A DNA stretch of 64,000 nucleotides from an uncultured Bacillales bacterium (GTDB lineage: Bacteria; Bacillota_I; Bacilli_A; RFN20; CAG-826). This document shows, piece by piece, positions 6,052 through 43,040 of this stretch. Below the pieces are notes generated by a model. That model searched no databases. It saw nothing but the letters and a program-made list of their open reading frames with translations, and was not told the origin of the DNA. Position 1 is the stretch's first letter. Each line of letters opens with the position of its first letter. The DNA is taken from contig CAMJWS010000004.1 of NCBI GenBank assembly GCA_946409515.1, forward strand, positions 36,013 through 100,012, given 5' to 3'. Made by a program: the position numbers and the translations under genes.

Positions 6052-7173
6052 CTATAATTCTATTAATATATCCTTAATTGCGTCGAGTTTTTCACTTTCA
6101 ACACCGATCACTTCATTTAGATATTTATATGTCTTTTCTTGTAAGGTTTCGCCTTCATAAGCTTTAAGTGTCGCACCATATCGATCATCGATATCTTCAG
6201 TTTTACATATACCGCTTATTTTAGCGAAGTTGGAGAATAAATAATCACGATATAGATATTCTTCTTCCATTCCACATAAAGCTTCGATTAAATAGGCCAT
6301 ACAGCCTGTTCTATCCTTACCAATCGCGCAGTGGAAATCAATTGGATAATTGTTTTTATCACTAAGTAGTTCAAAGAACTCCTTAATACGCGCTGGATTA
6401 TCGTATAAGAAAGAATTACGTTCACCAACATAAGTGAGAACATTTTCACCACCATAATACATTGGTAAATGGTTATAGGAGACCGTTTCACCTAACGGTG
6501 AGGCTTTGATATTACCATTTTCTCCTGGTCTTCTTAAGTCGATTTCTGTTTTAATTTTTAAAGTGTTTAATAAAACATCTTTAGACTGTTCATCTAATAA
6601 AGAAATACCATCTGCATCTTCGTCTTCGTTGAAGCGTCCACTACGGTAGATTAAACCTTGTTTAATGCCATGCCCGCCTAAATCACGAATGTTCATGACA
6701 TTGTTGACGTATAAGTTACGTGGACCCTTTTTTGCGGTCTTAAAGAGGTGTCCATTGCCTTTAAACTGTACACTATCGCTATAATAAGCGGTTACATCAT
6801 AGGAATAAAACGTATCTAATTTTAAATTATACAGTTCAAATCCATCTGGATTAGTAATTCCACTTTTAGTGAACCAATGTTCGCCTTCTTCAAAGACATC
6901 AACGATATAGTACTTAGGCTTTTTATTGTTGTTTGCTTTAGAGCCTTTCCAATTAATAAAGTATGGTACGGGTTGTTCTTTTGATGAACTACCCGCTGCA
7001 ATACCGTTCGTGGTCATATAATCTTCCGCATTGATGTATTTATTTTGTAATTCTGTATGGAAGTCAAAAGTGAATTCCTGTTTTTCAAACTTGAAATCAA
7101 AAGATGTTGGTTGGCACGCAGTAAGGGCAGTAAGTAGGAACAATGATCCTGATAAAGAAATAGATTTTTTCAT
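6052..7173 (-). CDS. Lipoprotein with C-terminal cysteine-phosphatase domain (protein-tyrosine-phosphatase-like, Y_phosphatase3/PF13350-type)
   Basis: Signal peptide plus lipobox MKKSISLSGSLFLLTALTAC. N-terminal beta-rich domain ending in the conserved PRNLYV motif. Then NVMNIRDLGG and the catalytic P-loop FHCAIGKDRTG (HCX5R). Confidence 0.75.
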   Translation of the reverse strand: MKKSISLSGSLFLLTALTACQPTSFDFKFEKQEFTFDFHTELQNKYINAEDYMTTNGIAAGSSSKEQPVPYFINWKGSKANNNKKPKYYIVDVFEEGEHWFTKSGITNPDGFELYNLKLDTFYSYDVTAYYSDSVQFKGNGHLFKTAKKGPRNLYVNNVMNIRDLGGHGIKQGLIYRSGRFNEDEDADGISLLDEQSKDVLLNTLKIKTEIDLRRPGENGNIKASPLGETVSYNHLPMYYGGENVLTYVGERNSFLYDNPARIKEFFELLSDKNNYPIDFHCAIGKDRTGCMAYLIEALCGMEEEYLYRDYLFSNFAKISGICKTEDIDDRYGATLKAYEGETLQEKTYKYLNEVIGVESEKLDAIKDILIEL

Positions 7174-10661: not shown

Positions 10662-11129
10662 TTACCAACGATAATGTGAGTAAGCTTTATTAGCTTCTGC
10701 CATTTTGTGGGTGTCTTCTCTTTTCTTAACTGACGCACCTGTGCCGTTAGCGGCATCAATGATTTCGTTAGCTAAGCGGTCTTGCATGGTTTTTTCATTT
10801 CTTAAACGTGAATAGCTGACTAACCATCTTAAACCTAATGTAACTTTTCTTTCTGGGGAGACTTCGGTTGGAACTGGGAAGTTCGCACCACCGACTCTTC
10901 TCATCTTAAGTTCGACTTCTGGCATGATGTTGTTGATGGCTGTCGCGAAGACGTCCATTGCTGGTTTGCCAGTTTTTTCCTCGATTTTCTTAAAAGCACT
11001 GTAGAGAATGTTTTGAGCGGTGCCTTTCTTACCATCGAGCATAATTTTGTTGATTAAACGTGTGACTAACTTTGAGTTGTAAATTGGATCTGGTAAGACA
11101 TCACGTTTGGTTGGATTTCCTTTACGCAT
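10662..11129 (-). CDS. rpsG: 30S ribosomal protein S7
   Basis: 155 aa, S7 family sequence, located between rpsL and fusA (str operon order). Confidence 0.93.
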
Positions 11130-11145
11130 AACTGTTTCTTACCTC

Positions 11146-11565
11146 CTATTCTTCACCTTTTGGTTTCTTGGTACCGTATAAGCTACGACCTTGACGTCTG
11201 GCTTCGATACCCGCACAGTCTAATGTACCTCTAACGATGTGATAACGCACACCTGGGAGGTCTTTAACACGGCCGCCTCTAATGATGACGGTACTGTGTT
11301 CTTGTAAGTTATGACCTTCACCACCGATATAAGCAGTGACTTCGTAACCATTACTTAATCTAACACGAGCGTATTTTCTTAAAGCTGAGTTAGGTTTCTT
11401 TGGTGTCATTGTACCAACACGGGTGCAAACGCCACGTTTTTGCGCTGCAGGTTGTGCTGTTTCTTTTTTCTTCAAAGAATTCCATCTTTGACCAAGAGCA
11501 GGGGCTTTAGACTTGAATGTCTTATTTTGTCTGCCTTGACGCACTAATTGGTTAATTGTTGGCAT
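11146..11565 (-). CDS. rpsL: 30S ribosomal protein S12
   Basis: [15 protein letters not shown]...[28 protein letters not shown]... Start ATG at 11565 with AAGGAG RBS. The longer listed ORF (start 11679) is an unsupported 5' extension. Confidence 0.93.
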
Positions 11566-11765
11566 AATTGCTCCTTTCAATAACTGTTTCATAATGTGCG
11601 CACCACAGTACCTGGTGTATCGGTACTTTCCCATTAAAAACGACCGAAATTGGTCTGGGTGTGATTTGCACACGCTCATATATAATATATAAGGATTAAA
11701 ATACGCGCAATAAAAAATATAAAATACTACACACTAGTCCTGGTGTGTCATATGTTTAAAATGTA

Positions 11766-11795
11766 ATAAAAAGAGCTACATTAAGTAGCCCTATT
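11766..11795 (-). terminator. Intrinsic terminator downstream of acpP
   Basis: Minus-strand RNA ...GGGCUACuuaauGUAGCUCuuuuuauuac: a 7-bp stem with one mismatch followed by a U-tract. Confidence 0.45.
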
Positions 11796-11814
11796 TCTTA
11801 TTGTTTGTAGTTGA

Positions 11815-12039
11815 TTATTTCTTATTAGCCTCAAGGTAATCAACGACGTCTTTAACGGTCACAAAGTTCATTGGTTCATCAAATGTCACACCGTATTCAT
11901 CTTCGATGGCCATCGCAAACATCATAATACCTAAGGAGTCAAAATGGAGATCATCCACGAGTTTAGTATCTAAAGTAACGTTATCTAAATTAAGATCTGG
12001 ATCAACGTTTTTCATTAATTCTTTTAATTTTTCTAACAT
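11815..12039 (-). CDS. acpP: Acyl carrier protein
   Basis: 74 aa, DSL phosphopantetheine-attachment motif (LHFDSLGIM). Confidence 0.9.
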   Translation of the reverse strand: MLEKLKELMKNVDPDLNLDNVTLDTKLVDDLHFDSLGIMMFAMAIEDEYGVTFDEPMNFVTVKDVVDYLEANKK

Positions 12040-12086
12040 GATTATTTACCTCAACTTCAATAGTTTACCAAAATCGTAAACTTCTA

Positions 12087-13085
12087 TCAACGGAGAGCAT
12101 CGTTTCTTTGCTCTTGTGTTAAGACTGCTTCACCACTAGCGTGATTAAGCATCATTCTGGAAATATTGACGATTGCTCTTTCATCAGAATTACCACGCGC
12201 TTTAATAATAAGTTTGCGCGCGCCTAACACTAAACCACCACCTAAAGCGGAGATATCATAAGACTTCATTAAGTATTGAGCAACTTCCATGAATTCTGGT
12301 CTTTCTCTCTTTTTAGAGAGCTTAACGATATCGGTAATTAATTGTCTAGCGACACCTTCAACGTTCTTAAGAACTTGGTTACCCGCGAAGCCATCACAAA
12401 CGATGACATCAGCGTCACCAGTTAAAGTTTGGTTACCTTCAATATTGCCAATGAAGTTAATAGTTTCATCTTCTTTTAGAAGAGGATATGTTTCTTTCAC
12501 TAAGTGGTTACCTTTAGTGGCTTCTGCACCATTAGAGAGTAAAGCGACACGTGGAGATTCGATCTTATACATCTTTTTCATCAAATCAGAGCCTAAACGG
12601 GCGAATGAGTGCAATTGTCCAGCGGAGCAATCAATTGTGGCACCTGTGTCCACTACGCAGCTGTATGCGCCTTTTCCGTTAGGAAGAACAGCGGCCATAC
12701 ATGGTCTGGTTTTATTTTCGTCACTTAAGAATCTAAAACTACCCATGAGAATAGCCCCACTGTTACCAGCGGTAATCATACCAGCGTAGTTCTCTTCTTC
12801 TTTGCCCACTTCTTTCATCGCTTGGACTAAAGAAGCGTTTGGTTTATTCATAATTCCTGTATAAGGATTTTCATAATTAGTAATTGTTTCTTCCGCATTA
12901 ATAACTTTAATACGGCTCATGTCTAAGCCTAATTCATCCTTCTTTTCGTTAACGAGAGCCTTGGGACCGACAAGAGTGATAAATAAGTTAGGAAATTCTT
13001 TTAACGCTAAAGAGGCGCCTAAAAGGACTGTTTCTGGACCTTTATCGGAGCCTAATAAATCGATAACTATTTTATATTGTTCCAT
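12087..13085 (-). CDS. plsX: Phosphate acyltransferase PlsX
   Basis: MEQYKIVIDLLGSDKGPE... PlsX family. Start at 13085 with AAAGGAAG RBS. Confidence 0.9.
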   Translation of the reverse strand: MEQYKIVIDLLGSDKGPETVLLGASLALKEFPNLFITLVGPKALVNEKKDELGLDMSRIKVINAEETITNYENPYTGIMNKPNASLVQAMKEVGKEEENYAGMITAGNSGAILMGSFRFLSDENKTRPCMAAVLPNGKGAYSCVVDTGATIDCSAGQLHSFARLGSDLMKKMYKIESPRVALLSNGAEATKGNHLVKETYPLLKEDETINFIGNIEGNQTLTGDADVIVCDGFAGNQVLKNVEGVARQLITDIVKLSKKRERPEFMEVAQYLMKSYDISALGGGLVLGARKLIIKARGNSDERAIVNISRMMLNHASGEAVLTQEQRNDALR

Positions 13086-13153
13086 AATATACTTCCTTTT
13101 GCGGAAGTTATTATAGCACATCTAACGTTTAACTTGTTAAAAATGAAGGAATA

Positions 13154-14104
13154 TTAGCCGTTTACTTCGGTTAAAGTCTCAATATAAGTGCGAACATTGC
13201 TATATATATTTTCGCCGACATTGTAGACATTTTTATCATTGCCAGCAATTTGGATTCGCATATGTCCACTTCTATAAAGGATGATTTTCACACACTCAAT
13301 ATTAAATGTGTTTAATTTGAAAGGCATAGTAACAACACTTTCGCCTTGGCCTAGTGTATATGTTGTGACACTAGCGGAGCCAGTATCGGTAAATAAATAA
13401 GAATTAATAGTTGCGGTATCCGCACCTGTGTAATATTTGTTTTTTGGTTGATCATCAAATATCACAATCTTTTGATTTGCGATTGATGAATCACTCATAA
13501 ATGGAATCTTGTTTAAGAAATCATCAATTGTGGAGAATGTGATATCTTCATTAAAGCAAGCATAAATATGAGAATCATTAGAATATTTCGCGGCTATAAA
13601 TACTTCAGAAGAATAATTCTTAATCTCATAGATTGCGACACTTGTATTTTGATAAGTACTCTCAATAATTAAATTACCTAGGTTTTCTTCTTGGACAGTA
13701 GCGTACATGCTACTTGACTGCCCACTACCACTACCTTTACTGCCAGTTGCTATAAAGGCATAATCAACATCGTTAACACGGATGGATTGTTTGTTGGCAG
13801 GGGCTGTGCTTGATTCTTTTAGGCCCTTTTCAGCACTAGTATCTTGTCCTTGCTGAGTATGATTGGAAACATCATTGTTTTTGCCTGGTGATTGAGGGGC
13901 ACGACCACCCATACCAAAACCATTAATAAGGCCAACGAAAGCTACGACAGCGACTGCGGCCACTAAAGATGCAGGGACCATAATTTTGCCCCATAAAGGT
14001 ATTCTAGAGAAGAATGATGGTTTATTAACGTGATATGGATTATGCGCAAACTTATCAAGTTTTTGCATACCGCGTTTTCTCAGTTTCTTTTCAATATCGT
14101 TCAT
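13154..14104 (-). CDS. Putative membrane anti-sigma factor (cytoplasmic N-terminus, single TM, ~230-aa extracytoplasmic domain)
   Basis: ATG at 14104 lies 1 nt after the stop of the upstream sigma factor gene (TAA at 14108..14106), so the two are translationally coupled. MNDIEKKLRKRG...KIMVPASLVAAVAVVAFVGLING (TM) is followed by a Ser/Gly/Thr-rich ecto-domain. Confidence 0.5.
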   Translation of the reverse strand: MNDIEKKLRKRGMQKLDKFAHNPYHVNKPSFFSRIPLWGKIMVPASLVAAVAVVAFVGLINGFGMGGRAPQSPGKNNDVSNHTQQGQDTSAEKGLKESSTAPANKQSIRVNDVDYAFIATGSKGSGSGQSSSMYATVQEENLGNLIIESTYQNTSVAIYEIKNYSSEVFIAAKYSNDSHIYACFNEDITFSTIDDFLNKIPFMSDSSIANQKIVIFDDQPKNKYYTGADTATINSYLFTDTGSASVTTYTLGQGESVVTMPFKLNTFNIECVKIILYRSGHMRIQIAGNDKNVYNVGENIYSNVRTYIETLTEVNG

Positions 14105-14105
14105 C

Positions 14106-14603
14106 TTAACGTAGCTCCTTTCTGAGTTTCTCAAGTGCCTCAGCATATAGCTTTCTAGCGGTGCTTTCTTTAATACCTGTAAGTTCCACGATTTCTGGCC
14201 AGGTATATTGGAAAACAGCCTTGTAATAAGTGACAATAGTCTCCTTATTAGTGAGGAGAGGTTCTAACATATTGAGCATGACGTTATATTGGTCAGTTTC
14301 ACCATACATCTCATCAATGACTTCACTATTAGCGATTTCTCTTTTCTTTTTTAAGAAATCAAGGGCTTGGTTTCTTGCGATTGCGGTTAAGTATGTCTTT
14401 AAGTTACTAGGATCTTTAATGTTACTTCTAGAATTAATGGCCTTAATGAAGGACTCACTTAAAACATCTTCACAATCTTCTGGAAGAGAGATATAGGAGG
14501 CGATAACGAAGTACATCAGATTTTTGTATTCGTCATAAACCTCACCGATCGCTTCTTGATTACCTAGGATGAAGCCTTGGATGGTTTTTGATGAAATGCT
14601 CAT
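14106..14603 (-). CDS. ECF-type (group 4) RNA polymerase sigma factor
   Basis: 166 aa with sigma-70 region 2 (...YLTAIARNQALDFLKKK) and a region-4 HTH (TWPEIVELTGIKESTARKLYAEALEKL). ATG at 14603 with GAGAGG RBS. Confidence 0.75.
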   Translation of the reverse strand: MSISSKTIQGFILGNQEAIGEVYDEYKNLMYFVIASYISLPEDCEDVLSESFIKAINSRSNIKDPSNLKTYLTAIARNQALDFLKKKREIANSEVIDEMYGETDQYNVMLNMLEPLLTNKETIVTYYKAVFQYTWPEIVELTGIKESTARKLYAEALEKLRKELR

Positions 14604-14631
14604 TTGCACCTCTCACTTATTAAGACGAATT

Positions 14632-14661
14632 AGAATAGAAAAACTGTTATTTTTTATTCAA
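14632..14661 (-). promoter_or_regulatory. Candidate promoter for the sigma/anti-sigma pair (TTGAAT, 18-nt spacer, TATTCT)
   Basis: Minus-strand hexamers located by reverse complement, positioned about 25 nt upstream of the sigma factor start. Confidence 0.3.
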
Positions 14662-14743
14662 TTATTCATTATTGATTATCTAATTTATCGATAACCACTT
14701 GTTATTTTCTCAAATAGATTTTTTATTTTCAATAAGTATAGGC

Positions 14744-14776
14744 ACAAAAAAAGAGTCACCCATTTGGATGACTCTT
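14744..14776 (-). terminator. Intrinsic terminator downstream of rpoC
   Basis: Plus-strand aaaaaaaAGAGTCAcccatttggaTGACTCTt. The minus-strand RNA forms an 8-bp stem followed by U7. Confidence 0.7.
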
Positions 14777-14793
14777 ATTATTTAATAGTTCAA

Positions 14794-17700
14794 CTACTTC
14801 TTATCTTCGTCTAAGACACGAATCTTTTCGTTAATTTCTTTAACTTTTCTTTCGTGTTCTTCAACGTATCTATCACTGACTTCTCTCATAGTTTCTAAGA
14901 CATCGAAATTATTGGAGATTTCATCAGAAACAGAATCGTTCACTAAGCCACGACCCGCTGGGATAAGGTGACCTGTGATGACGTTTTCTTTTAAGCCGTG
15001 TAAGTAGTCAGTTTTGCCTTTAATAGCGGCATCTGTTAAGACACGGGTTGTTTCTTGGAAGGAAGCCGCGGAGAGGAATGATTCTGTTTCCAAAGCGGAC
15101 TTTGTAATACCAAGAATTAATGGTGAGAAGACGGCTGGGTGTTTGCCACTTAAGATGGCATCAGTGTTCTTCGCGGTGAAGGTGTTAACGTTCACACGTG
15201 TACCACTTAACATATCGGTATCACCAGCTTCAATGACTAAGACTTTTCTTAACATTTGTCTGACGATAACTTCGATGTGCTTATCGGAAATACCGATGGA
15301 TTGAGCACTATAAACCTTTTGGACTTCTTTTAAGATGTAGTTTTCCACCGCTGTCACATCAGCGACTTCGAGTAACTTCTTAGGTGAGATAGCGCCTTCA
15401 GTGATCTTGCCACCATTTTTGACAAAGTCACCTTTCTTGACTCTTAATCTCGCACCGAAGTTTGTGGTGTATTCTTTTTCATCAAGATCGTTCTTAACGG
15501 TCACTAAGTAGCAACCATTCTTTTCTTCAATCTTGGTGACTGTACCAGAGATTTCACTAATTAAAGCTTCGCCCTTTGGAGTACGAGCTTCGAATAATTC
15601 TTGAACACGAGGTAAACCTTGAGTAATATCGGAGCCCGCAACACCACCGGTGTGGAATGTTCTCATGGTTAATTGTGTACCTGGTTCACCAATTGATTGA
15701 GCAGCCATAATACCAACTGCTTCACCAACTTGAACTCTTCTACCTGTCGCTAAGTTACGACCATAGCAGTGTACGCAAACGCCATCTTTTGTTTCACAAC
15801 CGAATAAGTTACGAATGACAACGGATTTAATACCAGCGTTGACGATAGCTTTAGCTTCGTCTTCGTGAATCATGGTGTTGCCCTTAACGATGACTTCACC
15901 AGTTTGTGGATTAACGACATCATTGAGAGCGAAACGGCCAACTAAACGATCTTCGAGTTTGACGATGACGGCATCTCTAGCGGAGTCTCTGATTTCAAAG
16001 ACTTCGAAGCCGTGGTCAGTACCACAGTCTTCTTCTCTAACGATAACATCTTGAGAAACATCGACTAATCTTCTAGTTAAGTAACCAGAGTCAGCGGTCT
16101 TTAACGCGGTATCAGCACCACCCTTACGAGCACCGTGGGTGGCGATAAAGAATTCGGACACGTTCATACCTTCACGGAAACATGATTTAACTGGGAGTTC
16201 GATAGTAGAACCAGAGGTACTACCCATCAAGCCTCTCATACCGGCTAATTGGAGAATATTGGAGATATTACCACGAGCACCGGAATCAGACATCATGAAG
16301 ATTGGGTTACGTGTATCTTGTTTGAATTGAACTTCAAGTTTCTTTTGAACTTGGTCTTTTACGTTTTCCCAAACGCTGACGACTTGTTTATGTCTTTCTT
16401 CGTTGGTCAACATACCCATTTCATATAATTCTTTTAAGTTAGCGACTTTGTTATCACCATCTTTTAAGATTTCTTCTTTGCCTTTAACAGCGTGGATATC
16501 ACTTAAGGAGACGGTTAAGCCGGCGACTGTAGAATAATGGAAGCCTTGGTCTTTAATCTTATCCAACACAGCGGATGTCTTTGGATTACCTTGACGATCG
16601 TAACGTTGGAAGATTTCGTTAATGATAAGACCTAATTCTTTCTTCTTGAATGGTTTTAAGATTGGGCGAGAAGCAATGAATTCAGGAATATTTGTACCAC
16701 GTGGGGCGAAATATGTCTTGACCACTTCTTGGTCGCCTCTTAAGGAAGCACCACTTACTTCGTTTAAATATGGGAAGTCACTTGGGAAGATTAAGTTGAA
16801 GATTACTTTACCAACAGAAGTGATTAAGTAGCTCTTATTTTGTTCTTCTGTGAAATCCTTCTTCATCATCGCACTACCTAATAAGGCAATACGGTTATGT
16901 AAGTGAACTTGTTTTGTTTGATAAGCTCTAATGACATCATCGACGTCTTTGAAGACTTTACCTTCACTAGCAGCATAGAGTTCATATCTTTCGGCTTCTT
17001 CTTCATCTTTACGAGCATGTAACTCTTTAGCGATTCTTAAGAAGTCTTCTTTTGTGCTTTCAAGTGTTAAATAGTAGTTACCAATAACCATGTCTTGGGA
17101 TGGTGTAACGATTGGTTTACCATCTTTAGGACCAAGAATGTTATTAGAGGCTAACATTAAGTGTAAAGCTTCTTCTTGAGCGGCTTTAGATAATGGGACG
17201 TGAACGGCCATTTGGTCACCATCGAAGTCAGCGTTGAAACCGGTACAAACGAGTGGGTGTAAACGGATGGCACGACCATCAACTAAGATTGGTTGGAAGG
17301 CTTGGATACCAAGTCTATGTAATGTAGGAGCACGGTTTAATAAAACTGGGTGCTTAGAAATGATTTCTTCGACGATATCGAAGACGACATCATCGTATCT
17401 ATCAATGATCTTATCGGCTTGTTTATGCGCGTTAGCGACACCTCTCTTTAAGAGTTCACAAGCGATAAATGGTCTTAATAATTGAATGGCCATTTCTCTT
17501 GGTAAACCACATTGATACATCTTTAAGAATGGACCAACAGCGATAACGGAACGACCAGAGTAGTCGACACGTTTACCAAGTAAGTTTTGTCTGAAACGAC
17601 CTTGTTTACCTTTAAGTGCACTGCTTAAGGACTTAAGGGCACGACCACCAGGACCTTGGACTGGTTTATTTCTTCTGCCGTTATCAATTAAAGCGTCAAC

Positions 17701-37891: not shown

Positions 37892-40276
37892 CTAGTAGAC
37901 CAATCTCACTTGTTCAGTGAACAACAAGCGATAATCAAAATTATTATGAACAAATTCGATTTCTAAGTTAGTATCGTTAGCAATGTTATAACCAACAATA
38001 TCAAAGTACTGACCTGTTGTTGTTAAACCTAATTGTCCATATGTCTGACCGTTTGTAAGAAGAATGCTTTGGGTAGCGCCATTAATCTTTACTTCATATT
38101 TGCTACTATCGAACGTTTGAGAAGAATGTGTGCTGTAAGACATCTTTATATTGAATTGAAGTTTAACTTCACCTGCCTTTGCAGGAATATCCCATTTGAA
38201 TGTGGTTTTGACCTTGTTATTGCCAGAGCCGCCGATTTTACCATCGCTGTCAATTGAACCATCTATGGATGTGTAGTCAGTAAACTTAATAGCAATATAC
38301 TTTTTACCACAGTCGCATAAATAAGTAGTGACTTGTTTGCCAGCTTTATTTGTGATTGGAGTTTGTGCGACATAGTTATGGGTTGTATGTTCGCCACCTA
38401 CACCACCACCTTGAGAGCCACCACCTTGAGCAGTAGCGGCATCAAAGATATAAATACCGCCAATGTTCATCGAATTTGAGGTGCCTGTGACCTTAATTGT
38501 GTGGCTACCCTCTGAAATATCAACTTCGCCTAGAATAACCGGGTAATAGTTATATCTTGAGCCACACTTGCCCATTCTTGCATCTGAATATGTTTGATCT
38601 TTCATGCTGATGGAAGTGTTGTCTAATGAGCAACCGACTGCATCCGCTATTTTTTTAGAAGAAGATGAATCACCATTTCCTAAATAGGCAACAACTTGAC
38701 CCTTATATGCTTTAGAGGCATTAAAAGTATAGCTAACTGATTGAGAAGAACTATTTAAGGTGTAATAGTTATCTGGATTATTTCTATCAGAGGCATCAGT
38801 TTTAAGGCTTGTTCCTGAAGCAGTTAATGTGTTAGCGGGCGCAATTACTTGACCTGCGTCATTGTCTTTTGCTACTTGTCCTTCTGTCAAATTAGCGATG
38901 ACGGTATCTAATGTAGTCTTAGAAACGCCAATTGAAAGTAGCATGTTGTAAACTTTATTTTTGAATGTTTTGCCTGACATGTTTTGGATGTCATTAATAT
39001 AGTTTTGAATATTATCTTTACCAGCTTTTGGGCCAATATATCTCTTTTCTTGGATCTTACCAAAGTTAGAGAATAAGTAGTCTTGATATATTTCATTTAG
39101 GGAAACACCAAGTAAACCAGATAATAAGATTGCACATAAGCCAGTTCTATCTGTGCCAATACGGCAATGAAAGAAAACAGGATAGTTATTTGAATCGCCT
39201 AATAAGTTAAAAAAGTTTTTAACAGATTCGGTATTTCTAGAGAAGTGATGAGAACCACCGTCATAATCCATTAAGAAGTCTTTTACAGTTGTACCGCTTA
39301 ACTTAAGGTTATATTTAGTGCCATCAGCTACATTTACTTCGGTCTTCACTTTTAAGTGTTGAAGCATTTCTTTTTTGCCATCTTCTGTAATCACAGTGCT
39401 ATAGTCATACTGGTACCCACTTGTTCTATAGACAAGGCCTTGCTTCATTTTGCCACCATCTTCAAGAACTCTTCCACCCATATCGCGGCAGTTAGTCATG
39501 CCACCGATGGTGAGATTTCTTGGATAAGTTGTATCTACATCAAAGAATCTAATTTCAGTCGATTCTTTTTGTCCATCAGAGAAGTTAGCCACTAATTTAT
39601 AGTAGTTTCTACCTAAATATGGATTGTAATAGGCTACTGACTTAGTTGATGTCTTGATTTCATAACCATCGCTTAAGTCTTCTTTTTGACCGCTTATGAA
39701 GCTGTAGTTAGAAACTGTTTTACCACTAGGAGCGGTGTAGTTCCACGAAAGATTGACTGGTAACGAATCTGAAAGGTGTTGCGTGCCATCTGGATATTGA
39801 TTCTCAGGCATTTGATCATAATTACCAGAATAAGATAAATAAGCCTTCTGATCGGCAGTATGAATCTCTACTGGAGCGTTAAACTCTGTGATGTTAGAAA
39901 AGTTACCTTCGCCAACGGGAGGCTGGCTAGTAGATGAACTGCTAGAAGAGCTCGATGAAGAAGAACTACTAGAGCCGCTGCTTGATGATGGCTTGCTACT
40001 AGAACTACTACTAGAAGAAGATTTGCTACTGCTCGAACTAGAACCGCTACTCTTGCTAGAGCTAGAAGAACTGCTCTTGTTTGAATTTGAACTAGATTTG
40101 TTTGAACTACTAGATGCAGACTCGCTAGACTCAGAATCACTTGAAGATATTGAACCGCTTTCTATAACACTAGAAGGTTCTTTGCTTTCCTGACTGCTAT
40201 TAGCCACTACAGTACATGAAGAAATAATTAGCGTTGATAAAAAAGCTAAACTTAGAAACATTTTTCTTTTTTTCAT
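37892..40276 (-). CDS. Large surface lipoprotein (794 aa): ~85-aa Ser-rich linker, PRNL beta-domain, cysteine-phosphatase domain (PF13350-like) and two C-terminal beta-rich, possibly carbohydrate-binding, domains
   Basis: Lipobox LIISSC. Ser-rich tract SSSNKSSSNSNKSSSSSSSK.... The motifs TYPRNLTIGGMTNCRDMGG and FFHCRIGTDRTG (HCX5R) follow, and then a long Gly/Thr/Asn-rich C-terminal region. Confidence 0.75.
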   Translation of the reverse strand: MKKRKMFLSLAFLSTLIISSCTVVANSSQESKEPSSVIESGSISSSDSESSESASSSSNKSSSNSNKSSSSSSSKSSGSSSSSSKSSSSSSSSSKPSSSSGSSSSSSSSSSSSSSTSQPPVGEGNFSNITEFNAPVEIHTADQKAYLSYSGNYDQMPENQYPDGTQHLSDSLPVNLSWNYTAPSGKTVSNYSFISGQKEDLSDGYEIKTSTKSVAYYNPYLGRNYYKLVANFSDGQKESTEIRFFDVDTTYPRNLTIGGMTNCRDMGGRVLEDGGKMKQGLVYRTSGYQYDYSTVITEDGKKEMLQHLKVKTEVNVADGTKYNLKLSGTTVKDFLMDYDGGSHHFSRNTESVKNFFNLLGDSNNYPVFFHCRIGTDRTGLCAILLSGLLGVSLNEIYQDYLFSNFGKIQEKRYIGPKAGKDNIQNYINDIQNMSGKTFKNKVYNMLLSIGVSKTTLDTVIANLTEGQVAKDNDAGQVIAPANTLTASGTSLKTDASDRNNPDNYYTLNSSSQSVSYTFNASKAYKGQVVAYLGNGDSSSSKKIADAVGCSLDNTSISMKDQTYSDARMGKCGSRYNYYPVILGEVDISEGSHTIKVTGTSNSMNIGGIYIFDAATAQGGGSQGGGVGGEHTTHNYVAQTPITNKAGKQVTTYLCDCGKKYIAIKFTDYTSIDGSIDSDGKIGGSGNNKVKTTFKWDIPAKAGEVKLQFNIKMSYSTHSSQTFDSSKYEVKINGATQSILLTNGQTYGQLGLTTTGQYFDIVGYNIANDTNLEIEFVHNNFDYRLLFTEQVRLVY
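39930..40190 (-). repeat. Low-complexity Ser-codon tandem repeat (AGC/AGT/TCT/TCG-rich) encoding the poly-Ser linker
   Basis: Visible as gctagaagaact/gctactagaa-type reiterations. The +strand ORF 39888..40193 and the small -strand ORF 39868..40140 are alternative-frame artefacts of this tract. Confidence 0.7.
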
Positions 40277-40383: not shown

Positions 40384-42024
40384 TTAGGCAGCGTGATCAG
40401 CGATGGTAATAGAGCCAACGTTGAATGTGCCATTCTTAGAGCTGATTTCCACTGTATGTTCACCAGCAGTTAATTCATAATTGCCTAAGATGTTGAACAT
40501 ATAGCCGTATCTATCTTTGCTTCTTGTTTGTCCGAAGCCAGCGGTCCATAAGTTCTTTGTGTTAGAAATGGTTTGTTCGACACCATCAATCTTTAATGTG
40601 ATGGAAGCTGATAATTTTGTGGATGTGTTTTGGTCAACAGAACCTGTGTAACCCATATAGACAATAACATCTTTTTTACCAGCAGTTGTTGTTGCTTTGA
40701 AGCTAGCTTTTTTGCCACTAGCTAAAGCGTAGTAGGTAGCTGGGGCTTTATAATCTGAGCTTGTTGACTTTGTGCCATCAGAAGTTAAGCCATCACCTTC
40801 ACCAACTTTAAATGTTTCTGGGATTTGAGCTTTTTCACCGATTGTCATGAAATCGATAATCTTGTCTAACTTTTCAGCAGAAACACCGATCATACGGAGA
40901 GCAAGGTAGACTTGTTCTTGGAATGTTTCACCTGGTAAGGCTAAGATTTCATCGATATATTTTCTAATATCATCACCATTGGTATCTGGGGTTTTGCCAG
41001 GATATCTTTGGTTATCGATTGGAGCAAAATTTGAGAAACCATAGTCTTGAAGTGCTTCATTAAATGGAACACCAAGTAAACCATTAATCATGATACCTGT
41101 GATACCTGTTCTATCTGTACCGATACGGCAGTGATAGAAGAGTGGGTAGTTATTTTCATCGGCTAAAACATCCATAACTTGTCTAATTTTCACAGAGTTT
41201 CTAGCTAAGTTAGAATATGGAACTGCGCCATAATCCATATAGCAGTTTTTAAGATTTACACCAGATAAGTTAACATTATTGTCATCTTTATCTGCAACGT
41301 TGATTTCTGTCTTAATGCCAAATTGTTCGGTTAAGATTCTTTTTGCTTCATCATTAGATGGAGTACCATTGTCAAATTTGCTACCGCTACCACGATAGAT
41401 TAAGCCTTGTTTGATTTTGCCACCGGCATAGGTTGTTCTACCACCCATATCACGGAAGTTTGGCATATTGCCAACATATAAGTTTCTTGGAGCTTGTTCT
41501 GTCACTTTGAAGGTTTTAACTTCACTTGATTGTTTTTGACCTGTTGTGAAGTTAGCAACGATTTTGAAATAGTTTGTGCCCAAGAAAGAATTGTAGAAAC
41601 TAATTGTAGTTTCTTTTGTACCTTGGACAACGTATGGATCGCTTAAATCCTCGTATTGACTAAAGACTAATGAGTAGTTCTTTAATTCATAACCATCTGG
41701 AGCTTCATATTCCCAGTTAAGTGTTGTTTTTTCAGGAGTGGAAACGTTTTTGTTACCGTAAGCATCACAAGAATCTAAGTCACTCTTTGTAATTTGGTAG
41801 TATTGTTTGGAAAGATTTAAATACTTTAATTGATTGGCGGTGTGAATTTCTTGAACTGTTTCGAGTTCATCATCATCAAAATTATAAGTACCACCAGTTA
41901 TTTCATCTGGATCTTGACTGCTAGGTTGGGCGCTACTACTCTTACCACCGGCTGGTTGATTGTCACAGCCAACCACGGATAAAGCAAGGATAAGAAGCGA
42001 ACCTAAAACGAATTTTTTGTTCAT
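40384..42024 (-). CDS. Surface lipoprotein (546 aa) with PRNL beta-domain, cysteine-phosphatase domain (PF13350-like) and a C-terminal beta-rich domain
   Basis: Lipobox LSVVGC. Motifs APRNLYVGNMPNFRDMGG and LFYHCRIGTDRTG. The C-terminal GEHTVEISSKNGTFNVGSITI is homologous to the C-terminus of the 794-aa paralog. Confidence 0.75.
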   Translation of the reverse strand: MNKKFVLGSLLILALSVVGCDNQPAGGKSSSAQPSSQDPDEITGGTYNFDDDELETVQEIHTANQLKYLNLSKQYYQITKSDLDSCDAYGNKNVSTPEKTTLNWEYEAPDGYELKNYSLVFSQYEDLSDPYVVQGTKETTISFYNSFLGTNYFKIVANFTTGQKQSSEVKTFKVTEQAPRNLYVGNMPNFRDMGGRTTYAGGKIKQGLIYRGSGSKFDNGTPSNDEAKRILTEQFGIKTEINVADKDDNNVNLSGVNLKNCYMDYGAVPYSNLARNSVKIRQVMDVLADENNYPLFYHCRIGTDRTGITGIMINGLLGVPFNEALQDYGFSNFAPIDNQRYPGKTPDTNGDDIRKYIDEILALPGETFQEQVYLALRMIGVSAEKLDKIIDFMTIGEKAQIPETFKVGEGDGLTSDGTKSTSSDYKAPATYYALASGKKASFKATTTAGKKDVIVYMGYTGSVDQNTSTKLSASITLKIDGVEQTISNTKNLWTAGFGQTRSKDRYGYMFNILGNYELTAGEHTVEISSKNGTFNVGSITIADHAA

Positions 42025-42191: not shown

Positions 42192-43040
42192 TTATGCGGC
42201 TGGTGTAGCAGGAGCAGCAAAGACAATAACGAAATCGTGAACAGCTAAGTTGAAACTATCAACTCTGGTGTATTTGATTGTATTTAAACCAGCAGCTAAA
42301 GAAACAGCGCCGATTTCACAATCGCCTAATGGAGACCACTTATGATCACCAAAATCCATACCGCCTTCTTCTGGAATAACATCACCAAATTTGAATGATG
42401 TCTTATCAGCGATACTAACTTCAGTCATTGCGCCTTCTAAACCAATTTCAACTTTGAAGTTACCAATGCCATTTGCAGCATCAGTATGGTCGTTATTTTC
42501 ATCATAGTAACCTTTGTTTTGATTGTTGTTTGAATCTTCGTACCAATAGTCCATACGGCCACGTTGATAGAGAACACCAGTCACAGCTTCTGCTAAGTTG
42601 AACTTAACTTCAAAGGTATCGCCATCTTTACCTAATTTAATGCAACCTTCTGGAGCACTCTTAGGAGTTCCGGTGTGTGTGTTTTCAGCGGTAGAAATCA
42701 TAATACCTTTAGAATTACAAACTGAACATTTGACTTTCTTGTAAGCGACTCCACCATTGCTTGCTTCAACATCGCCATCATCAGCCCATGTGTGTTGTTT
42801 GAGTTTTGCAATTGGTCTTGTTTCCGTATTACCGGCATCACTTTCGCGTTTTTCTTGACCTTCAGCACCACATGTGGCTGGAGTAACTACTGTCCATTCG
42901 CCCCATTTTTCTTTAGAAGTTGAAGGTTTTTGAGATGATGGTTGTTTGGAATTTGACTTGTCTGCATTATTTCCACCATTACAAGCGGCTAAAGATAATG
43001 CAGCAAAAACGGTCATTAAAGCGACTAATCTTTTTTTCAT
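42192..43040 (-). CDS. Lipoprotein (282 aa), function unknown, with Cys-containing N-terminal region
   Basis: Lipobox LSLAAC. Lys/Ser-rich linker and several Cys pairs (CGAEGQ, CSVCNSKG, CIKLG, CEIG). The terminator before it and the one after it suggest a monocistronic unit. Confidence 0.6.
   Translation of the reverse strand: MKKRLVALMTVFAALSLAACNGGNNADKSNSKQPSSQKPSTSKEKWGEWTVVTPATCGAEGQEKRESDAGNTETRPIAKLKQHTWADDGDVEASNGGVAYKKVKCSVCNSKGIMISTAENTHTGTPKSAPEGCIKLGKDGDTFEVKFNLAEAVTGVLYQRGRMDYWYEDSNNNQNKGYYDENNDHTDAANGIGNFKVEIGLEGAMTEVSIADKTSFKFGDVIPEEGGMDFGDHKWSPLGDCEIGAVSLAAGLNTIKYTRVDSFNLAVHDFVIVFAAPATPAA

Follow-up and report, generated by a model that had tools for sequence, protein, structure and literature searches.

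What kind of regulatory unit lies between rpoC and plsX in an uncultured rumen bacterium of the Bacilli lineage? We analyzed this locus in a 64-kb stretch of the bacterium's DNA, hereafter the window, in which all genes of the locus are encoded by the minus strand: first rpoB (22355-18735) and rpoC (18720-14794), next an intrinsic terminator (14776-14751, an 11-pair stem followed by a T-run), and then a sigma factor gene, a membrane-protein gene, plsX, acpP, rpsL, rpsG, and fusA. This order confirmed the original prediction, made by a model from the letters alone, that a sigma factor and a membrane protein are wedged between plsX and rpoBC. The terminator 3' of rpoC sets the two genes apart from rpoBC. 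We propose that they form a two-gene operon with its own promoter, which probably encodes a sigma factor of the extracytoplasmic function (ECF) type and its cognate single-pass membrane anti-sigma factor.

The two genes are tightly coupled. The sigma gene (14603-14106, minus strand) likely starts at ATG 14603, since all orthologues begin with MSIS and the ribosome-binding site GAGAGGTG (14614-14607), read in the sequence and kept at all loci, sits 3 nucleotides (nt) upstream. This start gives a 498-nt open reading frame (ORF) and a protein of 165 amino acids (aa), while the ORF lister had placed the start at GTG 14609, giving 167 aa. The stop codon TAA (14108-14106) is followed by a single G (14105) and by the ATG of the partner gene (14104), whose AAGGAG ribosome-binding site (14120-14115) lies within the 3' end of the sigma gene. 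The partner ORF, from 14104 to 13154, is 951 nt long and encodes 316 aa. The 1-nt spacing and the partner length that had been announced were thus borne out, but not the sigma length of 166 aa.

By sequence and predicted fold, the first protein is an ECF (group 4) sigma factor. It matched Pfam Sigma70_r2 (E 6e-12) and the NCBIfam ECF superfamily model TIGR02937, the latter with 68 bits vs a cutoff of 42.9 and over residues 19-166 of the 167-aa ORF starting at GTG. Pfam Sigma70_r4_2 gave 18.9 bits, under its cutoff of 25.7; region 4 was covered by TIGR02937 and by structural alignments. An AlphaFold2 model built with 50 homologues (mean predicted local distance difference test score, pLDDT, 79.7) comprised two helical domains, sigma2 (residues ~16-91) and sigma4 (~108-164), joined by a low-confidence linker (91-107). 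When this model was compared with the PDB by Foldseek, the top 11 matches were all ECF sigma factors, aligned over ~160 columns, and included SigW/RsiW, sigmaE/RseA, AlgU/MucA, CnrH/CnrY, and Mycobacterium SigL and SigH; BldN/RsbN (rank 15) and SigK came lower. At the sequence level, PDB matches were to BldN (6dxo, E 3.9e-7, the best) and SigW. The 165-aa protein holds sigma2 and sigma4 only, with neither region 1.1 nor region 3, as indicated by TIGR02937, AlphaFold2, and Foldseek, and in this respect the ECF-type sigma factor retaining only regions 2 and 4 was correctly foreseen. The assignment to an ECF group by hidden Markov models, which had been suggested as a check, was run against NCBIfam: the protein entered the ECF superfamily, but every named subfamily stayed under its cutoff. 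SigY (52 bits, cutoff 194) and SigV (47.8 bits, cutoff 190) scored best, and SigW, SigX, SigM, SigZ, and the others were likewise far below theirs. As judged by these profiles, it belongs to no curated named ECF subfamily. PHROGs and PADLOC returned generic sigma matches only for the sigma factor and none for the partner, and an Rfam scan of 11000-15500 yielded no meaningful match.

Is the association of the two genes a constant one? The partner family counts 112 near relatives, all from rumen metagenome-assembled genomes (MAGs) named "Bacilli bacterium" or "Erysipelotrichaceae." The order sigma-partner-plsX was found at nine genome loci and on five further contigs, with rpoC upstream wherever those contigs reach. 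Scanning metagenomes with the sigma alignment added 49 loci, 46 of them with DNA downstream of the sigma gene. All 59 loci whose DNA extends beyond the sigma gene (13 from genomes or assemblies and 46 from metagenomes) had a partner ORF adjoining the sigma stop codon, so that the search for sigma orthologues lacking a membrane partner, named in the original prediction as what would speak against it, found none. Nearly all partner ORFs start 1 nt after the stop codon or overlap it by 4 nt (ATGA, the case in most relatives); of the others, four have a 10-nt overlap and one begins 14 nt downstream. Because the pairing recurs in every related locus examined, it is not due to chance. Loci with a sigma identity of ~68% or more retain the rpoC/plsX context, and those at 50-62% sit elsewhere, on contigs with a GC content of 33-53%; the latter are either paralogues or pairs from other organisms. 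Short partners (~200 aa) had been considered as same-genome paralogues. This was rejected and they are orthologues from another clade, since they share the same rpoC-sigma-partner-plsX context.

A few loci of this collection deserve mention on their own. In three of them, a toxin-antitoxin pair (RelB-PIN or RelB-YafQ/ParE) is inserted between rpoC and the sigma gene (L010:3212-3894, L011:191-873, and L012:1457-2004). Loci L001 and L007 come from the same MAG (RGIG8901) and carry two different versions of the sigma-partner-plsX locus, which suggests a mixed bin rather than paralogues. At L018:683-931, the partner ORF ends after 82 aa, just beyond the membrane helix and ~800 nt before plsX; either the putative anti-sigma gene is truncated here or sequencing introduced a frameshift.

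The partner had been described as a single-pass membrane protein with a short cytoplasmic N-terminus, and its composition agreed with this. Kyte-Doolittle analysis revealed one hydrophobic segment (residues 35-67, core ~41-63), which we take as a single transmembrane helix at residues ~41-63 (13984-13916). Residues 1-40, MNDIEKKLRKRGMQKLDKFAHNPYHVNKPSFFSRIPLWGK (14104-13985), carry 10 K+R vs 3 D+E, and this fits an N-terminus located inside the cell. This stretch, hereafter the N-module, is the candidate anti-sigma module. It contains no cysteine, and therefore no HxxxCxxC motif, and gave no zf-HC2 match in Pfam; the zinc motif is missing as predicted, and so is any known anti-sigma domain. 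The whole partner matched nothing in Pfam (E up to 1), in NCBIfam, or, by sequence, in the PDB. AlphaFold2, run on the partner with 51 homologues, placed a helix at residues 3-20 with modest confidence (pLDDT 54-64) and gave no confident structure for residues 21-104, of which the low-complexity extracellular stalk (64-104; 13915-13793) had a pLDDT <50 and was predicted to be disordered. Conversely, residues 105-316 (13792-13154 with the stop codon) were modeled at a pLDDT of ~90 as two tandem beta-sheet-plus-helix subdomains. The Ser/Gly/Thr-rich external domain of the original prediction thus holds for residues 64-135, which are 35% S+G+T, but not for the confidently predicted fold at 105-316. 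This ectodomain, a candidate sensor, had no significant Foldseek match in the PDB, the best being the nisin immunity protein NisI (E 0.047).

The N-module and the ectodomain showed opposite behaviors in evolution. Among close relatives, identity to the window was 99% for RpoC, 94-97% for PlsX, and 97-100% for the sigma factor. The N-module reached 89-98% and the ectodomain only 31-79%, which indicates that the N-module tracks the sigma factor whereas the ectodomain does not. Across ~50 distinct pairs, the motif EKKxxKR...L[DN]....NPY...PxWxK followed by the membrane helix was kept, its full pattern reading M-x-[FIL]-[ED]-[KR]-x-[ML]-[KR]-K-[RH]-...-L-[DN]-x4-N-P-Y-(6 to 16 residues)-P-x-W-x-K. 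Invariant residues include E5, K6, K10, R11, K15, A20, N22, P23, Y24, P36, W38, and K40, as well as P44 at the start of the transmembrane helix. The motif was retained while sigma identity dropped to ~55%, and it stood before unrelated ectodomains of at least three types (200-580 residues). Pairwise identities of sigma factors and N-modules were correlated (r = 0.81, ~50 pairs). A profile of the N-module found no match in the PDB, and none in Pfam or NCBIfam, and by this measure it is a family new to all three. A third protein search with the N-module alignment brought only five short fragments.

The boundary between the conserved and the variable part of the partner was sharp. Compared with two close relatives (L004 and L005), DNA identity was 85-100% across rpoC, the sigma gene, the N-module, and the membrane helix, except for dips to 70-78% in the rpoC-sigma spacer and in one bin within the sigma gene. 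It then dropped to 31-66% from ~13920 to ~13140 (residues ~62-316) and regained 90-100% at the plsX promoter. Synonymous divergence (dS) was 0.13-0.19 for rpoC, 0.32-0.42 for the sigma gene, 0.32-0.54 for plsX, and 1.4-1.65 for the ectodomain, where non-synonymous divergence (dN) was ~0.7; the hypervariable stalk had a dN of 0.5-1.5 vs close relatives. Because dS is 1.4-1.65 as against 0.13-0.54 in neighboring genes, the ectodomain alleles are much older than the genomic background, which indicates allele replacement by recombination and not merely relaxed constraint. Mosaic proteins were also seen, such as P0091, with the N-terminus and stalk of one allele and the ectodomain of another. In close relatives, recombination swaps the stalk and ectodomain and never parts the sigma gene from the N-module and membrane helix.

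A further line of evidence came from ectodomain homologues lying outside this family. An exhaustive profile search with the ectodomain collected 459 representative proteins (E up to 0.001). Many of them match in the ectodomain alone and have other N-termini, the commonest being an acidic motif, L..LG.IDD.FIEEA, which is absent from Pfam and is followed by a membrane helix. Proteins with such a different cytoplasmic module were encoded directly downstream of an ECF sigma gene in the six cases out of six that were looked up, with five 4-nt overlaps and one 23-nt gap (acidic-module loci L064:3001-4095, L065:2501-3532, L066:2501-3538, L068:464-2920, L069:2001-3122, and L070:732-2099). Furthermore, in three assemblies a single ORF (P0358, P0382, and P0383) comprises an ECF sigma factor with regions 2 and 4, a linker, a membrane helix, and an ectodomain homologue. 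This fusion, exemplified by P0383 (L071:2001-3461, 486 aa, linker of ~47 residues), reads as a naturally membrane-tethered sigma factor. In the one case of a homologue without a cytoplasmic module, the gene was not beside a sigma gene. Since the homologues are sigma-adjacent in six of six cases, occur fused to a sigma factor, and are unlinked when the module is missing, the ectodomain appears to be a sensor module of ECF-linked membrane regulators in Firmicutes, which is independent evidence for the role proposed here.

Within the family, other ectodomains stand behind the same N-module and membrane helix. Pairs at 55-62% sigma identity have a serpin as ectodomain: the L032 partner matched Pfam Serpin with 37 bits vs a cutoff of 27, and a profile of ten such partners matched 34 PDB serpin sequences, the best being Serpin-ZX (E 8.8e-9), over an alignment that takes in the reactive-centre-loop region and the C-terminal signature. 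Serpin-type partners were seen at L032:758-2107, L033:1443-2885, L034:3495-5048, L036:3495-5147, L039:1962-3467, L056:1497-2972, and similar loci. The window ectodomain itself gave no serpin match in Pfam, in the PDB profile search, or with Foldseek. In a full-text literature search, no title or abstract dealt with an anti-sigma factor that contains a serpin. The third ectodomain type measures ~565 aa, is highly conserved within its group, and had no similarity in Pfam or the PDB (L042:1376-3058, L046:3495-5192, L048:1498-3216, L050:3495-5225, and L052:3495-5192).

If the sigma factor drives its own operon, a promoter of the ECF type should precede it. Upstream of the sigma gene, we found TAACAGTTTTTCTATTCTAATTCGTCTTAAT (14649-14619), followed by the ribosome-binding site; this promoter candidate consists of a -35-like TAACAG (14649-14644), a 16-nt spacer, and a -10-like CGTCTTAAT (14627-14619). 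Of 14 loci, 13 had exactly one match to the pattern TA[AG]C[AG]G-N16-CGTCTTA, and its place ahead of the sigma gene never varied; the fourteenth locus (L007) begins inside that gene. The motif was kept even where the surrounding intergenic sequence was unrelated, and more distant pairs had TGA[AG]C[AG]GTTTT...[CT]GTCTTA at the same place. TAACAG-N16-CGTCTTA resembles the AAC/CGT architecture of ECF promoters and fits autoregulation. The original prediction that the sigma factor has its own promoter motif upstream was therefore upheld as regards the presence and conservation of the motif.

The same motif served to look for other targets. In the window, the pattern occurred once, at its own promoter; five one-mismatch matches elsewhere compare with 5.9 matches expected by chance in total. 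With a position weight matrix, the own site scored 40.4, the next best site in the window -2.8, and shuffled sequence up to 10.4. The window holds four lipoprotein ORFs on the minus strand (6052-7173, 37892-40276, 40384-42024, and 42192-43040), with a lipobox at residues 16-17, and neither the pattern nor the matrix scan found the motif upstream of any of them. Control of nearby surface lipoproteins by the sigma factor, which had been put forward, was thus not supported, as the 64-kb window contains no second promoter site. Across ~330 kb of related loci, one extra site alone was convincing, an orthologue-type look-alike in a different organism, TAGCGGTTTT...CGTCTTG (L036:840-868), which immediately precedes the ribosome-binding site and start codon ATG of a lipoprotein gene. 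We regard it as a lead, not as evidence, for a regulon member.

How firmly do these data speak for an anti-sigma factor? From its sequence and setting, the partner very probably is one, because the pairing is constant, the N-module diverges in step with the sigma factor, the promoter is in the ECF style, and ectodomain homologues are sigma-linked. Several points weigh against it. The binding and inhibition of the sigma factor by the N-module are putative and argued from this context. The N-module is ~40 residues long, has one low-confidence predicted helix (pLDDT 54-64), and resembles no known anti-sigma domain. The correlation between sigma and N-module identities (r = 0.81) is confounded by shared ancestry. 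The spacing from the AAC-like -35 to CGTC is 18 nt, when the textbook ECF spacing is ~2 nt shorter, and the -35 reads TAAC or TAGC in orthologues, not GAAC. Lastly, save for the look-alike in L036, no regulon member turned up in the window or the related loci. ECF groups commonly have single-pass putative anti-sigma factors that lack known domains (PMC7826278), and we therefore file the pair under a known kind of system. What stands out is its minimal N-module, the recombination of its ectodomain cassette, and the relatives that carry a serpin.

One alternative is that the membrane protein is a positive partner or a tether, whose N-module activates or stabilizes the sigma factor or holds it at the membrane, so that loss of the partner would silence the system. 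FecR-type regulators, for instance, are needed for the activity of their sigma factors. The pairing, the coupling, and the co-divergence fit this model as well, and the natural sigma-helix-ectodomain fusion offers a permanently membrane-tethered sigma factor in the wider ectodomain family. Nevertheless, Pfam and NCBIfam detected no activator domain, of the FecR type or any other, in the partner. Also, where an ECF sigma gene is co-transcribed with that of a single-pass protein, the latter is mostly an inhibitor; one membrane helix is the commonest arrangement, in 82 ECF groups (PMC7826278). We consider a positive role unlikely.

About equally improbable is the view that the membrane protein is a co-transcribed surface protein, controlled by the sigma factor instead of regulating it, and that its N-terminus is an unusual extended export or anchoring signal. 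It is true that the ectodomain is hypervariable, as surface antigens or phage receptors are, and that a basic N-terminus followed by a hydrophobic helix recalls long Gram-positive signal peptides. Yet all nine confirmed genome matches to the N-module motif adjoin a sigma gene, and the motif is kept across unrelated ectodomains, each with its own sigma gene. Neither a signal-peptidase nor a lipobox site follows the membrane helix, and the homologues with a different N-module are sigma-linked in six of six cases whereas the module-less one is unlinked.

Finally, the sigma factor could have been a developmental or competence sigma factor like SigH or ComX rather than a stress-type ECF one, as Bacillus sigH sits near the ribosomal-protein/rpoBC cluster and the gene studied here adjoins rpoBC, is unusually conserved for an ECF factor (97-100% identity where PlsX has 94-97%), and has a weak Pfam region 4; this very improbable identity was rejected on family and fold matches, for the best NCBIfam matches are all ECF, with no SigH model among the top 25, nearly all of the best structural neighbors (including all of the top 11) are ECF sigma factors, the promoter motif has an ECF-like CGTC -10, and the position next to rpoC is lost in more distant pairs.

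Taking the pair as an ECF sigma factor with its anti-sigma factor, we compared it with known systems. Like SigW-RsiW of Bacillus subtilis and sigmaE-RseA of Escherichia coli, it has a two-domain ECF sigma factor (SigW is the best structural match in the PDB, and BldN the best by sequence), a downstream gene for a protein that spans the membrane once and has its N-terminus in the cytoplasm, and an ECF-type promoter ahead of the operon. RsiW and RseA are class I anti-sigma factors that are released by regulated intramembrane proteolysis; ChrR and RskA belong to class I, too. The window partner differs from them in having neither HxxxCxxC, the mark of the zinc-binding subgroup, nor a zf-HC2 or RseA match in Pfam. 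It also differs in size, as the class I domain is a three-helix bundle plus a fourth helix (PMC6101532), ~80-90 residues in those two systems, while only ~40 residues with one predicted helix precede the membrane helix here.

Class II domains are small two-helix clamps (PMC6101532) that embrace sigma2 and sigma4, and the length of the N-module fits; one low-confidence helix was predicted, and the N-module profile matched nothing in the PDB. A very short inhibitory module, putative in our pair, is shared with CnrH-CnrY and NepR, CnrY is single-pass too, and CnrH is among the structural neighbors of the sigma factor. In contrast, there is no sequence similarity, and the window partner has one low-confidence helix and a large folded ectodomain, whereas CnrH-CnrY/NepR come from proteobacteria. 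Class III is represented by RsbN, which needs residues 1-91 forming three helices (PMC6101532). BldN-RsbN of Streptomyces is akin in that, among PDB sequences, the sigma factor matches BldN best and RsbN, too, is unlike earlier anti-sigma classes; but the ~40 cytoplasmic residues found here compare with 91 there, fewer than a class III domain takes. With this length, the N-module should be unable to form a class I or class III domain, and its size fits only the class II clamp.

Two further systems resemble the pair by the layout of the membrane protein. In Clostridium thermocellum, SigI-RsgI couples a short cytoplasmic anti-sigma module and a membrane helix with interchangeable extracellular sensor domains. 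The same holds for our pair, with a conserved short module and one helix before interchangeable ectodomains and with a promoter variant of its own for each pair; however, its sigma factor is ECF-type with 165 aa vs ~250 aa for SigI, the partner gave no RsgI_N match (PF12791), and the sensor domains are not carbohydrate-binding modules. RsiV of Bacillus subtilis is a single-pass anti-sigma factor with a short cytoplasmic region and a folded, ligand-binding ectodomain. SigV-RsiV is likewise a Firmicutes ECF sigma factor with a single-pass partner, and SigV is among the better NCBIfam matches, but at 47.8 bits it stays far under the cutoff of 190 and the window partner has neither DUF4179 nor DUF3298 (Pfam, E up to 1).

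We propose the following mechanism. At rest, the basic cytoplasmic module of ~40 residues would hold the sigma factor at the membrane by means of an amphipathic helix (residues 3-20), the NPY turn, and the PxWxK juxtamembrane motif. A signal would reach the extracellular two-subdomain module by ligand binding or proteolysis, probably via the disordered stalk. Regulated proteolysis is the most likely way in which the partner would then be inactivated, setting the sigma factor free. Once free, the sigma factor would transcribe from TAACAG-N16-CGTCTTA of its own gene, resulting in a positive feedback, and possibly from further targets elsewhere in the genome; read-through into plsX-acpP may follow.

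The downstream boundary of the operon bears on this last step. The plsX gene (ATG 13085) has its own extended -10 promoter, TGCTATAAT (13118-13110), which starts 35 nt after the partner stop codon and is conserved in all orthologous loci. Its 5'-untranslated region forms a hairpin (13108-13091) that covers the plsX ribosome-binding site, so that promoter and hairpin together occupy 13118-13091; the stem varies by locus with pairing kept (ACTTCC/GGAAGT here, ACTAT/ATAGT elsewhere). No terminator separates the partner gene from plsX, and thus read-through from the sigma operon into plsX-acpP is possible. Further downstream, four related loci carry a lipoprotein gene between acpP and rpsL (L001:7483-8367, with Big_2 domains, L002:7430-8338, L005:7525-8406, and L010:7073-8077). 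In the window, the acpP-rpsL gap (11814-11680) is a short intergenic region without the lipoprotein gene seen in those relatives.

What does the pair mean for this group of bacteria? It adds an uncharacterized family of ECF sigma and putative anti-sigma factors from a lineage of uncultured rumen Bacilli, and its promoter motif is a concrete handle for regulon finding in complete genomes. Since the candidate sigma-binding module is unusually small and sharply defined, structural or synthetic-biology studies of orthogonal sigma/anti-sigma switches could readily make use of it. The ectodomain behaves as a discrete recombining cassette, with a dS three to ten times that of flanking genes, which marks a surface element under diversifying or balancing selection, and the presence of serpin domains on the same adaptor in relatives suggests that extracellular protease activity could act directly on transcription. 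It is possible, though rather doubtful, that the N-module is a new structural class of minimal anti-sigma domain, which in rumen Bacilli would serve as a portable adaptor before interchangeable extracellular cassettes, namely the two-subdomain module of the window and the serpin. Were this the case, the serpin cassette would be a protease-triggered anti-sigma factor, and the anciently diverged alleles found in near-identical genomes would suggest the sensing of, or exploitation by, partners that vary, for example phages, bacteriocins, or host molecules.

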